Source of the DNA: Escherichia coli
GTDB lineage: Bacteria; Pseudomonadota; Gammaproteobacteria; Enterobacterales; Enterobacteriaceae
Assembly: GCF_045037415.1 (NCBI RefSeq)
Contig: NZ_CP173438.1
DNA length: 64,000 bases
Reading direction: 5' to 3' (one strand)
Positions 14,027 through 20,225 of the stretch are shown one piece after another. A program made the translations under genes and the position numbers. Below the pieces are notes generated by a model. That model was not told the origin of the DNA. It searched no databases and saw nothing but the letters and a program-made list of their open reading frames with translations. Numbering within the stretch: position 1 is the stretch's first letter; each line of letters opens with the position of its first letter.

Positions 14027-14120
14027 AAAATAAATATATTCTGAAAAAATATGCCTGCTCTTGCATAAGAGCGGGAATATTGCCATGCTAACGAAATTCT
14101 TACACAAGGATGTAAAATTA

Positions 14121-14501
14121 ATGTTGCGTATATTTATTCCAACATCTAAAGGCAGAATTTCCAGACGCCGCTATATATTTTCATTTATTTTTACAAATCT
14201 AATTTGTATCTTACTTATTTCTTTTTTTTCCAATGCCGGGGCTGGTTTCTTTGTTATAACATCTACCATTCTTTTACATTATCTCGTTATCAACATGAAT
14301 TGCCAACGACTCCGGGATAGTGGTTTTACTTATATAAAAACTTATATTTTTAGTACATTAGTAGTCTATATCATTTCTTTCATCATCATGGTTGCTGAGC
14401 ATTTTGACTGTTCTGGCAATGGTTCGATGATTTTTTTGATTTGTTATTTTTCCACCTTTGGCATGTTAGTTCTTGCCCCCACTGATTCCCCCCGTAAATA
14501 A
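14121..14501 (+). CDS. yigG: DUF805-family inner membrane protein
   Basis: ORF 14061..14501; RISRRRY motif near the N-terminus is typical of DUF805. Start chosen at MLRIF to give 126 aa. Sits in a low-GC block. Confidence 0.65.
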
Positions 14502-15904: not shown

Positions 15905-16258
15905 TGCTTAAAATATCGGACAGTTCGGTGGGCACACAGAAACAAATTGGGTTTCAGACCATTAAACAGCCTGACTCAGCGCGACGGGAAAAATTGAGGT
16001 CGCTGACAACCGCTAAGGCTATCAGCAAAAAGGGATAGCCTTAGGAGTTGATCCTGGATGACAGGATAGTGAGCCAGTATCTACTGGGTGTGTCCAAGGC
16101 GAATGTCCTCTTAGAGTGATCGTGCGCGCATGTTACGCCAGCAAAATTTTGCCGTCAACACGCAACAGAACACCACAGAACAATAGTTGAACTTCGCGCT
16201 TTTTGGTACTCGTCAAGGTCGCTAACAGGATAAAAAAATCCCACATTCAGGGCCTATA
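15905..16258 (-). promoter_or_regulatory. corA promoter and long 5' leader region
   Basis: 354-bp untranslated region upstream of corA. In enterobacteria corA carries a long regulatory leader; elements not mapped here. Confidence 0.4.
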
Positions 16259-17023
16259 ATGGCGCATCGGCTATTCATTGGTAAAGGAATGATCACCTTG
16301 AATCTCAAACGGATTTTTCTCACCCTCACCTTACTTCCCTTGTTTGCTGTTGCCGCTGATGATTGCGCACCCTCAGATCCGACGCTGACCGTACAGGCGT
16401 ATACCGTTAATCCTCAAACAGAGCGGGTGAAAATGTACTGGCAAAAAGCCAATGGCGAAGCGTGGGGAACGTTACATGCGCTGCTGGCGGATATTAATAG
16501 TCAGGGTCAGGTGCAGATGGCGATGAACGGCGGCATCTATGATGAAAGCTATGCGCCGCTCGGTTTGTACATCGAAAACGGTCAGCAGAAGGTGGCGTTA
16601 AATCTCGCTTCAGGTGAAGGGAATTTCTTTATTCGCCCTGGCGGCGTGTTTTATGTCGCGGGAGATAAAGTCGGCATCGTTCGTCTGGATGCCTTTAAAA
16701 CCAGTAAAGAGATTCAGTTTGCGGTGCAGTCAGGGCCATTGTTGATGGAAAACGGTGTAATTAATCCGCGTATTCATCCCAACGTCGCCTCACGTAAAAT
16801 TCGTAACGGTGTTGGGATTAATAAACATGGGAACGCCGTGTTTTTGCTGAGCCAGCAGGCGACAAATTTTTATGATTTTGCCTGTTATGCCAAAGCGAAA
16901 CTGAACGTTGAGCAGCTGCTTTATCTTGATGGCACAATTTCACATATGTATATGAAAGGCGAGGCAATCCCGTGGCAACGCTATCCTTTTGTCACCATGA
17001 TTTCCGTCGAGCAGAAAGGTTAA
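16259..17023 (+). CDS. yigE: DUF2233-family exported protein
   Basis: 254-aa ORF. The first ATG overlaps a TATAAT-like hexamer; a second ATG at 16289 has an AAAGGA RBS and begins a signal peptide (MITLNLKRIFLTLTLLPLFAVAA), so the true start may be 16289. Confidence 0.75.
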   Translation: MAHRLFIGKGMITLNLKRIFLTLTLLPLFAVAADDCAPSDPTLTVQAYTVNPQTERVKMYWQKANGEAWGTLHALLADINSQGQVQMAMNGGIYDESYAPLGLYIENGQQKVALNLASGEGNFFIRPGGVFYVAGDKVGIVRLDAFKTSKEIQFAVQSGPLLMENGVINPRIHPNVASRKIRNGVGINKHGNAVFLLSQQATNFYDFACYAKAKLNVEQLLYLDGTISHMYMKGEAIPWQRYPFVTMISVEQKG

Positions 17024-17105
17024 ACATTGTACACTCGAGGAGGCCAGACAAACTGGGGCTGGCTACACAGCTGGAAAATCATCAGATAAATGAAGGGAAA
17101 CAAAA

Positions 17106-18008
17106 ATGAAAAAAACGCTCGCAACATTATTTTTATTAACCTGTCTGGGGTCATCATCCGCTTATGCGGATAACGCTTTGATTTTACAAACGGATTTTAG
17201 CCTGAAAGATGGTGCCGTCTCGGCGATGAAAGGGGTCGCATTCGGTGTTGACCATAATCTTAAAATCTTTGATTTAACACACGAAATTCCACCGTATAAC
17301 ATCTGGGAAGGCGCTTATCGCCTGTATCAGACTGCCAGTTACTGGCCGCAAGGTTCGGTGTTTGTTAGCGTGGTCGATCCAGGTGTTGGTACAGACCGTA
17401 AATCGGTAGTGCTGAAAACCAAAAACGGTCAGTACTTCGTTTCACCAGATAACGGTACGCTCACGTTGGTGGCGGAATCGCTGGGTATTGAGAGCGTCCG
17501 GCAAATCGATGAAAAAACCAACCGTCTGAAAGGTTCCGAAAAGTCATATACCTTCCATGGTCGTGATGTATATGCCTACACCGGTGCGCGTCTGGCTTCC
17601 GGGGCGATCACGTTCGAGCAGGTGGGGCCAGAGCTTCCTGCAAAAGTTGTCGAACTTTCTTATCAGAAAGCCAAAGCAACAAAAGGTGAAGTGAAGGGCA
17701 ATATCCCGATTCTCGATATTCAGTACGGCAACGTCTGGAGCAATATCAGCGACGAGTTGCTGAATCAGGCAGGAATCAAACTCAACGACACGTTGTGTGT
17801 GACCATTTCCGAAGGTTCCCAGCAAAAATACGCAGGGAAAATGCCGTATGTCGCAAGCTTCGGCGATGTGCCGGAAGGCCAGCCGATGGTGTATCTGAAC
17901 AGCTTATTGAATGTTTCCGTGGCGCTGAATATGGATAATTTCGCGCAGAAACATCAGGTTGCGTCTGGTGCTGACTGGAATATTGATGTGAAGAAGTGCG
18001 CTAAGTAA
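17106..18008 (+). CDS. DUF62 / SAM hydroxide adenosyltransferase-like protein with N-terminal signal peptide
   Basis: 300-aa ORF; MKKTLATLFLLTCLGSSSAYA signal peptide (AXA site); then LQTDFSLKDGAVSAMKGV...DLTHEIPPY...VVDPGVGT...VSPDNGTLTL, the conserved N-domain pattern of DUF62. Starts 82 bp after yigE with a GAAGGGAAA RBS. Confidence 0.7.
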   Translation: MKKTLATLFLLTCLGSSSAYADNALILQTDFSLKDGAVSAMKGVAFGVDHNLKIFDLTHEIPPYNIWEGAYRLYQTASYWPQGSVFVSVVDPGVGTDRKSVVLKTKNGQYFVSPDNGTLTLVAESLGIESVRQIDEKTNRLKGSEKSYTFHGRDVYAYTGARLASGAITFEQVGPELPAKVVELSYQKAKATKGEVKGNIPILDIQYGNVWSNISDELLNQAGIKLNDTLCVTISEGSQQKYAGKMPYVASFGDVPEGQPMVYLNSLLNVSVALNMDNFAQKHQVASGADWNIDVKKCAK

Positions 18009-18017
18009 GGTGCTGAT

Positions 18018-18048
18018 GCCGGATGCGGTGTAGCGCACCGCATCCGGC
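18018..18048. repeat. REP-type palindromic element (GCCGGATGCGGTG-TAGCG-CACCGCATCCGGC) between the convergent DUF62 gene and uvrD
   Basis: Perfect 13-bp inverted repeat with GCCGGATG core typical of E. coli REP sequences. Confidence 0.7.
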
Positions 18049-18062
18049 AACGGAATCGTAAA

Positions 18063-20225
18063 TTACACCGTCTCCAGTCGGGCGTAAGCCGCCACCAGCC
18101 ATTTAATACCCTGGCCCTGGAATGCCACCTGCAAACGGCTATGCTCGCCGCTGCCTTCCATATTGACGATGGTGCCTTCACCAAACTTAGCGTGGCGTAC
18201 GCGCTGGCCGAGCTTGTAGCCGCTGTCGTTCTCGACCATCGGCGTCCCCATACGCTGATGGCTGACCGGGCGGCTTACCGTGGCGCGCAGGCGCACCTCT
18301 TCCACACACTCTTCCGGCAACTCACCGATAAAGCGCGACGGGCGATGGTAAACCTCTTTGCCATATAGACGGCGGGTTTCCGCGTAGGTCAGCGTCAGTT
18401 TCTGCATCGCGCGGGTTACGCCAACGTAGGCCAGACGGCGTTCTTCTTCCAGACGCCCGCCTTCATCTAGCGACATCTGGCTTGGGAACATGCCCTCTTC
18501 CATACCAACGATAAACACCTGCGGGAATTCCAGACCTTTCGCCGAGTGTAGCGTCATCAACTGCACCGCGTCCTGCCAGGTATCCGCCTGCCCCTCGCCC
18601 GCTTCCAGCGCCGCATGGGAGAGGAATGCCTGCAGCGGCATTAAATCTTCGTCTTCTTCGTTGTAGCTGAACTGGCGCGTTGCCGTCACCAGTTCCTCTA
18701 AGTTTTCGATACGCGTCTGACCTTTTTCGCCCTTCTCCTGCTCGTACATGGTGCGCAGGCCGGAGTCTTTAATTACCCGGTCAGTCTGTACATGCAGCGG
18801 CATATCGGCAGTTTCCTGCGCTAAGGCGTCGATCAGCTCCATAAACCGCTGTAAGGCGCTGGCAGCACGTCCGGCGAGGGCTTTTTCCTGCAACAGTTCA
18901 CGACATGCCTGCCAGAGTGTTAACTGGCGATCTCGCGATGTCTGACGTACCACGTCCAGCGTCCGGTCACCAATACCCCGCGTTGGCGTATTCACCACAC
19001 GCTCAAAGGCCGCGTCGTCGTTGCGGTTGGCAATCAGGCGCAGATACGAGAGCGCATCTTTGATTTCCTGGCGTTCGAAGAAGCGCATCCCGCCGTAAAT
19101 ACGATACGGCATACTCGCCTGCAATAACGCCTCTTCCAGCACACGCGACTGGGCGTTGCTGCGGTAGAGAATGGCGCACTCAGCGAGCGCCCCGCCGTTG
19201 TCCTGCCAGGTTTTGATGCGATTAACCACAAAACGCGCTTCGTCGAGTTCGTTAAAAGCGCAATAAAGGGAAATCGGCTCACCGTCCGCGCCATCGGTCC
19301 ACAGTTTTTTACCCAAACGCCCGTTGTTGTTTTCAATCAGGGCGTTCGCGGCGCTCAGAATATTGCTGGTAGAGCGGTAGTTCTGCTCCAGACGGATAGT
19401 TTCAGCACCGGGGAAATCATTGAGGAAACGCTGAATATTCTCCACCTGCGCTCCGCGCCAGCCGTAGATTGACTGATCGTCATCGCCAACGATCATCACT
19501 TTGCCGGTATCGCCCGCCAGCAGGCGGATCCACGCATACTGAATGTTGTTGGTATCCTGGAATTCGTCCACCAGGATATTGGTAAACCGTTCGCGATAGT
19601 GCTGAAGGATATGCGGCTTGTTAAGCCACAACTCGTGAGCACGTAGCAGCAGCTCGGCGAAGTCCACCAGGCCCGCGCGGTCACACGCTTCCTGATACGC
19701 CTGATACACCTTCTGCCAGGTCTGCTCCACCGGATTACCGTAGCTCTGAATATGATGCGGACGCAGCCCCTCATCTTTCTGGCTGTTGATGTACCACATT
19801 GCCTGACGCGGCGGCCACTGCTTCTCGTCGAGATTCATCGCCTTGATCAAACGCTTAAGCAGACGTAGCTGGTCTTCACTGTCGAGGATCTGGAAATCCT
19901 GCGGCAGGTTGGCGTCCATATGGTGCGCACGCAGCAGGCGGTGCGCCAGCCCGTGGAAGGTGCCGACCCACATACCGCCCTGGCTAGTGCCCATCAGTTG
20001 CCCGATACGATGACGCATCTCCGCCGCCGCTTTGTTGGTAAACGTCACCGCCATAATCGAATACGGCGAGCAGTTTTCCACGCTCATCAACCAGGCGATA
20101 CGATGCACCAGTACGCGCGTCTTACCACTGCCCGCGCCCGCCAGCACCAGAAGGTTGCTGCGTGGCGCGGCCACCGCTTCGCGCTGTTTGTCATTAAGGC
20201 TGTCGAGCAGGTAAGAAACGTCCAT
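18063..20225 (-). CDS. uvrD: DNA helicase II (UvrD)
   Basis: ORF 18063..20411; conserved start at MDVSYLLDSLNDKQREAV gives 720 aa; Walker [12 protein letters not shown]. Confidence 0.97.
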   Translation of the reverse strand: MDVSYLLDSLNDKQREAVAAPRSNLLVLAGAGSGKTRVLVHRIAWLMSVENCSPYSIMAVTFTNKAAAEMRHRIGQLMGTSQGGMWVGTFHGLAHRLLRAHHMDANLPQDFQILDSEDQLRLLKRLIKAMNLDEKQWPPRQAMWYINSQKDEGLRPHHIQSYGNPVEQTWQKVYQAYQEACDRAGLVDFAELLLRAHELWLNKPHILQHYRERFTNILVDEFQDTNNIQYAWIRLLAGDTGKVMIVGDDDQSIYGWRGAQVENIQRFLNDFPGAETIRLEQNYRSTSNILSAANALIENNNGRLGKKLWTDGADGEPISLYCAFNELDEARFVVNRIKTWQDNGGALAECAILYRSNAQSRVLEEALLQASMPYRIYGGMRFFERQEIKDALSYLRLIANRNDDAAFERVVNTPTRGIGDRTLDVVRQTSRDRQLTLWQACRELLQEKALAGRAASALQRFMELIDALAQETADMPLHVQTDRVIKDSGLRTMYEQEKGEKGQTRIENLEELVTATRQFSYNEEDEDLMPLQAFLSHAALEAGEGQADTWQDAVQLMTLHSAKGLEFPQVFIVGMEEGMFPSQMSLDEGGRLEEERRLAYVGVTRAMQKLTLTYAETRRLYGKEVYHRPSRFIGELPEECVEEVRLRATVSRPVSHQRMGTPMVENDSGYKLGQRVRHAKFGEGTIVNMEGSGEHSRLQVAFQGQGIKWLVAAYARLETV

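Follow-up and report, generated by a model that had tools for sequence, protein, structure and literature searches.

An Escherichia coli gene lying between yigE and the 3' end of uvrD most probably encodes an exported, catalytically competent hydrolase of the DUF62 family. The gene is a 300-aa open reading frame (ORF) at 17106..18008 on the plus strand of the window, as we call the whole stretch of 64,000 nucleotides analysed here (assembly GCF_045037415.1, contig NZ_CP173438.1). We propose, with a probability of about 0.55, that its product works in the periplasm, where it would cleave extracellular S-adenosyl-L-methionine (SAM), or a like 5'-adenosyl compound, to adenosine and methionine for salvage. 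The substrate is the part of this proposal that we infer.

Family membership and catalytic residues

The protein matches both Pfam domains of the DUF62 family over their full model length. SAM_HAT_N (PF01887) covers residues 26-174 (17181..17627, plus strand; E=4.8e-53) and SAM_HAT_C (PF20257) covers residues 198-291 (17697..17978, plus strand; E=3.9e-18). An earlier reading of the window, made from the sequence only, had assigned the protein to DUF62 by the motifs QTDFSLKDGAVSAMKGV, VVDPGVGT and PDNG. All three are found in the translation, and the hidden Markov model matches to the N- and C-domains, which the sequence-only reading had named as a check, bear the assignment out. The family name 'SAM hydrolase/SAM-dependent halogenase family protein' is already attached to the gene in RefSeq.

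Structural comparisons paint the same picture. Sixteen distinct sequences of the PDB match in HMMER searches (best E=7.5e-44), among them PH0463, MJ1651, SalL, the ClA chlorinases and the fluorinases, and identity to the solved DUF62 structures is 30-35%. An AlphaFold2 model of the mature protein (residues 22-300 plus stop, 17169..18008, plus strand) reached a predicted local distance difference test score (pLDDT) of 95.8 and a predicted template modelling score (pTM) of 0.90, and recovered the two-domain, alpha/beta plus beta-sheet fold of the family. The top 40 PDB matches of this model in Foldseek were all DUF62-family structures (DUF62, SalL, FlA), with template modelling (TM) scores of 0.81-0.91 normalised by target length.

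In characterised DUF62 hydrolases, a water molecule activated by an Asp-Arg-His triad (D68-R75-H127 in PH0463) attacks C5' of SAM by bimolecular nucleophilic substitution (SN2), and the halogenases carry other residues at the triad sites, Y70/G131 in SalL and T80/S158 in FlA (PMC4859513, PMC10491745). In pairwise HMMER alignments, D91 (codon 17376..17378), R98 (17397..17399) and H151 (17556..17558), all on the plus strand, align with the D/R/H of Thermotoga maritima 2zbu, and SalL and ClA1 have Y/T/Y. Among 82 members of the exported clade, sampled from about 80 genomes, the Asp and the Arg are conserved in 100% and the His in 94%. The ribose-binding Asp, D30 (D16 in FlA), is conserved in about 99%. 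When 20 non-exported relatives are added, the triad, D30, PDNG (residues 114-117) and the G of the GN motif remain essentially invariant. The triad, D30 and PDNG all lie inside SAM_HAT_N, where the PxNGL motif of the family is present as PDNGTL (residues 114-119). The IDxxFGN motif, in SAM_HAT_C, takes the variant form LDIQYGN (residues 203-209), with the conservative changes I>L and F>Y, of which the Y is clade-specific. Judged by its sequence and modelled fold, this is a genuine DUF62 protein of the hydrolase type and not of the halogenase type.

One alternative holds that the protein is a halogenase or, in its other form, a cytoplasmic hydrolase that repairs (R)-SAM, its apparent signal peptide being due to a misassigned start codon; we regard it as very improbable. 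The halogenase form draws on the automatic labels 'adenosyl-chloride synthase' and 'salL' given to the Helicobacter pylori homologue HP0709 (PMC6090961, PMC6212823), and on the family-level likeness to SalL and FlA seen in the TM scores above. Against it, the hydrolase triad stands in place of the halide-site residues of both SalL and FlA, and the fluorinase model TIGR04507 scores 84.3 bits versus a cut-off of 400. The cytoplasmic form is weighed below, together with the evidence for export.

Export signal and cysteines

The signal peptide was judged by the rules for n-, h- and c-regions and by comparison with homologues. Residues 1-21 (MKKTLATLFLLTCLGSSSAYA; 17106..17168, plus strand) divide into MKK, TLATLFLLTCLG and SSSAYA/DN, that is, an n-region of charge +2, a hydrophobic core (Kyte-Doolittle 9-mer mean 2.3) and small residues at -3/-1 of the predicted cleavage site AYA/DN. 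By these rules, which ask for a positive n-region, an h-region of 7-15 residues and small residues at -3/-1, the N-terminus is that of a Sec substrate cleaved by signal peptidase I. The N-terminus has no twin-arginine motif. The Pfam domain begins 4 residues past the predicted cleavage site. The alignments to the 16 solved homologues all begin at query residue 23-29, opposite the homologues' own residues 3-15, and the first ~22 residues are thus an extra extension. The nearest non-exported relatives have only 3-8 residues ahead of the domain.

The extension is a property of the clade. It was found, 18-43 residues long and with a hydrophobic core, in 79 of the 82 sampled members, and the 3 exceptions are start-codon or truncation artefacts; the n-region is positive in 77 members and a small-x-small motif is present in 80. 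Between phyla the extensions have no sequence similarity, and only their architecture is common. The cleavable signal peptide claimed by the sequence-only reading is therefore upheld, both by the n/h/c rules and by the comparison.

The cysteines point in the same direction. Mature exported proteins have no Cys in 38 sequences and two in 37, and non-exported relatives have a median of 3.5. At the sites of C231 (17796..17798) and C298 (17997..17999), which together span 17796..17999 on the plus strand, both residues are Cys in 36 sequences and both are something else in 46, and in none does one Cys stand alone. In the model, C231 lies in a strand of the C-terminal domain (208-215, mature numbering) and C298 just past the last strand (270-276). 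A C231-C298 disulfide pair is probable from this co-variation, a pattern as expected in an extracytoplasmic protein. Detection of HP0709 in outer-membrane-vesicle (OMV) proteomes of H. pylori gives weak support for export (PMC8756444); these proteomes hold many cytoplasmic proteins too.

A lipoprotein anchored through Cys13 (LLTC) was considered and rejected. The lipobox is poor, its position is too early, and the residue is not conserved (Q in H. pylori SA213A), so cleavage by signal peptidase I is likelier than lipidation. The cytoplasmic repair hydrolase introduced above as the second form of a very improbable alternative is contradicted by the presence of the extension in nearly all clade members despite their divergence, by the lack of any in-frame start between M1 and the domain, and by the extracytoplasmic cysteine pattern. 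The (R)-SAM hydrolase equivalogs are defined as cytoplasmic, the compartment in which SAM racemises; here, the predicted signal peptide and the cysteines argue instead for a Sec-exported DUF62 protein, periplasmic in E. coli.

Extent and conservation of the exported clade

The family search covered 1.84 billion cluster representatives and returned 8762 family members at E<=1e-3, of which 400 reach E<=1e-30. Among the best 150 representatives, 121 could be classified: 71 have a signal-type extension (17 of them lipobox-like), 43 lack any extension, and in 7 the extension has no hydrophobic core. A taxonomic scan with one genome per species, from which 80 loci were kept, placed the exported clade in Escherichia, H. 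pylori, about 25 Aeromonas species, Edwardsiella, Thorsellia, Pasteurellaceae and Neisseriales. It is also found in Chitinophagaceae and other Bacteroidota, Verrucomicrobiota, Synergistota, Tissierellia, Fusobacteriota, Thermotogota and Planctomycetota, and spans at least 8 phyla. Salmonella, Klebsiella, Citrobacter and Enterobacter gave no match among the 80 loci. Identity of clade members to the mature E. coli protein ranges from 56 to 97% (median 64%), and conservation exceeds 90% over long blocks. As far as sequence comparison can tell, the exported DUF62 clade is large, with hundreds of 50%-identity clusters, and unusually conserved.

Two Fervidobacterium metagenome-assembled genomes encode a fusion of 639-640 aa (locus L067 4971..6890 and locus L076 4953..6875), in which a signal peptide and SAM_HAT_N are followed by two SAM_HAT_C domains and a Y_phosphatase3 domain, similar to protein tyrosine phosphatases. 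This fusion is a hint that the substrate may be phosphorylated, or that a dephosphorylation may be coupled to the reaction. It occurs in these two genomes only, and neither the other loci nor the window encode a homologue of the phosphatase domain.

The Helicobacter copy, HP0709

The nearest proteins outside Escherichia and Shigella are those of H. pylori and Helicobacter acinonychis, which are 300 aa long and 88-89% identical; the largest Helicobacter cluster counts 2579 member sequences. The H. pylori protein is HP0709 (O25413, jhp0648). It aligns to the E. coli protein without gaps, at 89% amino acid and 83% nucleotide identity (64% at third codon positions), and agrees with it in signal peptide architecture and in the two cysteines. 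The nonsynonymous divergence (dN) between the two is 0.059 and the synonymous divergence (dS) 0.99. With this ratio of 0.06, the exported DUF62 gene is, on sequence divergence, under strong purifying selection.

Nucleotide homology between the two species is confined to the coding sequence, 26 nt upstream and ~6 nt downstream (window 17080..18014; H. pylori locus L003 5981..6909). The GC content of the gene is intermediate in both hosts, being 47.7% in a window of 52% and 43% in an H. pylori genome of 38%. A neighbour-joining tree joins Escherichia and Helicobacter into one monophyletic group, recovered in 100 of 100 bootstraps and nested among Edwardsiella, Pasteurellaceae, Aeromonas, Thorsellia and Neisseriales. 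Together, the sequence data point to an old inter-phylum transfer into Helicobacter. Because of the nesting inside a gamma/beta-proteobacterial clade, the likeliest direction is from an Escherichia-like gammaproteobacterium into Helicobacter. The H. acinonychis gene occupies the same locus as in H. pylori (locus L089 4001..4903), which indicates that the transfer predates the split of the two species.

In H. pylori the gene is set in the order uvrA-hopE-rsmH-...-HP0709-homA/B, and the homA/HP0709 site is a prophage integration hotspot (PMC11321410). The record 'Helicobacter phage Pt11444_1' (PQ159899.1) includes HP0709 together with the host genes uvrA (labelled 'ABC transporter') and mraW. 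Given these host genes, the prophage call overruns into the chromosome, and the record is not a case of phage carriage of HP0709. Directly downstream of the DUF62 gene, H. acinonychis encodes a YfbR-like HD-domain protein of the 5'-deoxynucleotidase family (L089 4975..6219), and the same gene is found in H. pylori after an inserted homA/B gene (L003 9291..10511). The YfbR-like neighbour could either be a link to nucleotide metabolism or a matter of chance.

We found no functional study of HP0709/jhp0648 in the literature, only incidental mentions. A genome-wide association study (GWAS) of gastric cancer, which acknowledges a conflicting annotation of the gene, counts a non-synonymous single-nucleotide polymorphism in HP0709 (D/N at nt 145) among its hits (PMC6090961). 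This polymorphism, along with the presence of HP0709 in OMV proteomes (PMC8756444), raises the thought of a host-directed enzyme, which from the periplasm or from OMVs would either make immunosuppressive adenosine out of host SAM or deplete SAM, and thus act as a colonisation factor. Retention of the gene in E. coli of sequence type 131 (ST131), ATCC 25922, O157:H7 and Shigella would suit such a role. We nevertheless consider this hypothetical role improbable. The clade members are mostly environmental, OMV proteomes also include many cytoplasmic proteins, and a GWAS association is no mechanism.

Proposed function and competing explanations

After cleavage at AYA/DN, the mature protein would reside in the periplasm, probably as a trimer like its relatives. 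There, the triad would activate a water molecule to attack C5' of SAM or of a close sulfonium analogue. The substrate could be SAM that has reached the periplasm, or a related 5'-sulfonium adenosine, for example the (R,S) epimer or decarboxy-SAM. The products, adenosine and L-methionine, would then enter the cell through nucleoside and methionine transporters. E. coli is not known to import SAM, and the enzyme would play a scavenging role by making a non-importable compound importable, in analogy with the periplasmic nucleotidases UshA, CpdB and AphA. H. pylori needs methionine. Salvage also fits this species because it is a purine auxotroph that has kept an 89%-identical copy. H. pylori depends on purine salvage (PMC13280913), and in its biofilm HP0709 ('salL') was up 2.87-fold and the methionine transporter gene metI up 2.18-fold (PMC6212823).

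Several observations weigh against salvage of SAM, and its weak point, the substrate, is the one that we infer. SAM is intracellular and chemically unstable, and its supply in soil, sediment and water is doubtful; many clade members come from exactly these environments (Chitinophaga, Verrucomicrobia, Aeromonas). The E. coli protein scores far under the NCBIfam cut-offs for (R)-SAM hydrolase equivalogs, with 131.8 versus 350 bits for NF058624 and 114.7 versus 470 bits for NF053629. As its scores stay below these cut-offs and that of the fluorinase model, it is a family member and not an equivalog of any characterised enzyme. About 20 positions, for example E60, L121, A123, Y186, P201, Q206, Y207 and L267, are conserved in the exported clade only, which leaves room for a changed specificity. 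Neither a nucleoside nor a methionine transporter is consistently linked to the DUF62 gene at the loci compared. About 56% of the E. coli genomes do without the gene, and E. coli is prototrophic. For the export signal, most of the 36 two-Cys sequences belong to one proteobacterial subclade, and the co-variation may therefore reflect few independent events.

Part of this evidence can be turned in favour of another substrate. An exported DUF62-like enzyme might act on a non-SAM extracellular adenosine derivative with a C5' leaving group, in detoxification or processing. Candidates are 5'-halo-5'-deoxyadenosines, 5'-O-sulfamoyl nucleoside antibiotics, an adenosyl-corrinoid or a phosphorylated adenosine compound. 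Outside cells SAM would not be expected, and clade members abound in free-living bacteria of soil and water. The clade-only positions and the low equivalog scores also speak for such a substrate, and the Fervidobacterium fusion to a second SAM_HAT_C and a Y_phosphatase3 domain is a hint in the same direction. On the other hand, the triad, D30, PDNG and the GN motif of the SAM-using relatives are all retained, and the phosphatase fusion, restricted to two genomes, has no counterpart at other loci. Furthermore, we know of no alternative substrate for DUF62 enzymes, bar halide exchange on the same scaffold. We thus treat a non-SAM substrate as possible, at rather low odds. A broader idea, which we put forward as tentative only, is that the exported clade is an unrecognised class of extracellular C5'-adenosyl hydrolases, whose substrate would be an environmental or host adenosine conjugate rather than cellular SAM, or for which adenosine itself would be the point (immune modulation). 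If true, the transfer into the H. pylori/H. acinonychis lineage and the conservation of the gene would mean selection in the mammalian gut or stomach.

Distribution and history within Escherichia

Of 5426 complete E. coli genomes, 2413 (~44%) carry the DUF62 gene, in one copy each; only one of the 2414 matches is on a record other than a chromosome. Carriers include EC958 (ST131, 100% identical), ATCC 25922, UM146, O157:H7, O55:H7 and PCN033, as well as many Shigella. The full identity to EC958 marks the window as that of an ST131-like strain. Carriage by mobile elements was considered and rejected. The exported-type matches labelled as plasmids (two in E. coli, one in Aeromonas) are records of 4.9 Mb, which we take as mislabelled chromosomes, and the remaining plasmid matches are non-exported-type homologues with at most 48% identity.

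The K-12 derivatives NCM3722 and J53, and an O111:H11 strain, are without the gene. The sequence-only reading had taken DUF62 enzymes to be absent from the K-12 proteome, and for this gene that proved right: in NCM3722 and J53, just 146 bp of repetitive extragenic palindromic (REP)-type sequence separate yigE from uvrD. The K-12 allele departs from the window directly after the yigE stop, with ~130 bp of REP elements in place of ~985 bp, and the two sequences become identical again in the right arm of the REP hairpin described below.

Two divergent Escherichia lineages keep the DUF62 gene at the same site. Relative to these two lineages, the dS of the window is 0.28/0.36 for the DUF62 gene, 0.23/0.44 for yigE and 0.33/0.29 for uvrD. 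The shared site and the comparable range of dS indicate that the gene is old at this locus and was inherited vertically, which makes the K-12 state a secondary loss. On these sequence comparisons, the history is one of vertical inheritance at the yigE-uvrD site with later loss in K-12-like lineages.

Two variant alleles were noted. E. coli HS-02 has, at the yigE-uvrD site, a frameshifted DUF62 pseudogene with an internal stop (locus L087 2026..2883), the sole decayed allele in 60 sampled rows. In E. coli USVAST219 (NZ_CP120633.1), an IS4-family transposase and two features named 'phosphodiester glycosidase family protein' lie under the match. There, the 2401-bp query is found in two pieces over ~3.8 kb, which suggests an IS4 insertion in yigE at a locus that is otherwise identical.

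YigE and the gene neighbourhood

The sequence-only reading had proposed that YigE and the DUF62 protein could be the two enzymes of one periplasmic module, and that their genes be surveyed for co-occurrence. In this form, the two proteins would act one after the other on one nucleoside-containing substrate. Within Escherichia the arrangement is suggestive: the genes lie on the same strand and 82 bp apart, as the sequence-only reading had it, no terminator or promoter is predicted between them, both proteins have signal peptides, and the order is kept in divergent Escherichia lineages.

The survey, a tblastn search of YigE against 86 loci, returned a different picture. A neighbouring yigE was found in four Escherichia loci only, one of them the K-12 locus, which has no DUF62 gene. 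In the 76 non-Escherichia loci, the ~5 kb around the DUF62 gene never contain a yigE homologue; these loci include H. pylori, about 25 Aeromonas species, Pasteurellaceae, Neisseriales, Chitinophagaceae, Verrucomicrobia and Synergistota. Conversely, yigE is kept without the DUF62 gene in ~56% of the E. coli genomes. The adjacency is therefore Escherichia-specific. H. pylori, moreover, acquired the DUF62 unit only, as the homology ends 26 nt upstream and ~6 nt downstream of the gene. These phyletic data largely refute the module, which we now hold to be improbable, and yigE looks like a positional neighbour rather than a conserved partner. In the absence of a predicted terminator or promoter in the spacer, the two genes may be co-transcribed in E. 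coli, which would be an accident of gene position.

A conserved operon partner was sought more widely, by clustering all ORFs of 84 loci (L003-L086) and annotating the recurrent or adjacent ones with NCBIfam. This possibility was rejected, as no neighbour is kept beyond the genus. The neighbours vary, and include an RhlE helicase, a GGDEF protein, a LysR protein, GlgA/GlgC, a thioesterase, a MauG-like di-haem protein and a CocE/NonD hydrolase, as well as a resistance-nodulation-division (RND) pump, exonucleases I and VII, an acyl-homoserine lactone (AHL)-lactonase-like protein, an amidohydrolase and a methyl-accepting chemotaxis protein (MCP). With no partner conserved beyond the genus, the DUF62 gene behaves as a stand-alone unit. 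A role in a defence system was also rejected, PADLOC giving no match for YigE or the DUF62 protein.

Locus layout

The gene yigE (254 aa) occupies 16259..17023 on the plus strand and is annotated in RefSeq as a phosphodiester-glycosidase-family (DUF2233/NAGPA) protein. A match to PF09992 (NAGPA/DUF2233; E=7.9e-18) agrees with its earlier assignment to DUF2233, as does the predicted signal peptide with the claim that it is exported. The spacer that follows (82 bp, 17024..17105, plus strand) is missing in its entirety in K-12. Searches of this spacer predicted neither a sigma-70 promoter nor an intrinsic terminator. A Shine-Dalgarno-like AAGGG lies at 17093..17097, 8 nt 5' of the ATG of the DUF62 gene, and the final 26 nt (17080..17105, CATCAGATAA...) are, according to blastn, homologous to the sequence upstream of HP0709 in H. 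pylori. The 300-aa ORF itself stands where the sequence-only reading had placed it, between yigE and the uvrD 3' end.

The REP-type hairpin which was said to separate the DUF62 gene from uvrD is located at 18018..18048. It reads GCCGGATGCGGTG-tagcg-CACCGCATCCGGC, with a perfect 13-bp stem, lies between the two convergent genes and forms the right edge of the presence/absence polymorphism, its right arm being common to the window and the K-12 REP. The convergent uvrD ORF, on the strand opposite to the DUF62 gene, has its stop at 18063.

Two further observations concern the neighbouring region, as compared with strain Nord8, whose locus is identical to the window. By position, a 57-nt ORF, ysgD ('YsgD/CorL family protein'), is expected upstream of corA at ~16041..16097 on the minus strand. 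The gene upstream of yigF (14061..14501) is called 'protein YigG' in K-12 and 'hypothetical protein', with a different WP accession, in Nord8, and the yigG region may thus differ between the K-12 and Nord8 lineages.

Comparison with known systems

The closest characterised relatives are the DUF62 (R)-SAM hydrolases PH0463, MJ1651, SaDUF62, StDUF62 and T. maritima 2zbu, which share with the E. coli protein the Pfam domains, the fold, the triad, PDNG and the GN-containing motif of the C-domain. The solved members are cytoplasmic. They start 3-15 residues ahead of the domain and have no signal peptide, whereas the E. coli protein has a predicted signal peptide and a probable disulfide and, unlike the (R)-SAM hydrolase equivalogs, stays under both NCBIfam cut-offs. 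The role proposed for the DUF62 hydrolases is the repair of racemised intracellular SAM (PMC10491745). As this repair is intracellular, the role cannot apply to a periplasmic protein.

The chlorinases SalL and ClA1/ClA2 and the fluorinase FlA belong to the same superfamily, with the same fold and the same SN2 chemistry at C5' of SAM. The E. coli protein differs from these halogenases by the presence of the triad and the absence of the halide-binding residues, and the halogenases lack a signal peptide. In addition, no natural-product gene cluster surrounds the DUF62 gene at the loci compared.

UshA, CpdB and AphA are stand-alone periplasmic scavenging hydrolases, which cleave P-O bonds. Their likeness to the E. 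coli DUF62 protein is one of functional analogy only, as folds and chemistry are unrelated and the DUF62 protein would cleave a C5'-S bond.

We found no paper on an exported, periplasmic or signal-peptide-bearing DUF62 protein or SAM hydrolase. What is new here is the large and conserved exported DUF62 clade, along with its Helicobacter copy; the family name was already given in RefSeq, and the reaction catalysed is probably of the known type. The loss from K-12 is probably why the E. coli gene has gone unstudied, even though ST131, O157:H7, Shigella and ~44% of the complete E. coli genomes carry it. HP0709, for its part, has come up in a gastric-cancer GWAS. The family is now explained by intracellular SAM repair or by halogenation, and the exported branch fits neither. 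Either bacteria commonly meet SAM-like sulfonium nucleosides outside the cell, or the DUF62 scaffold has a second substrate.

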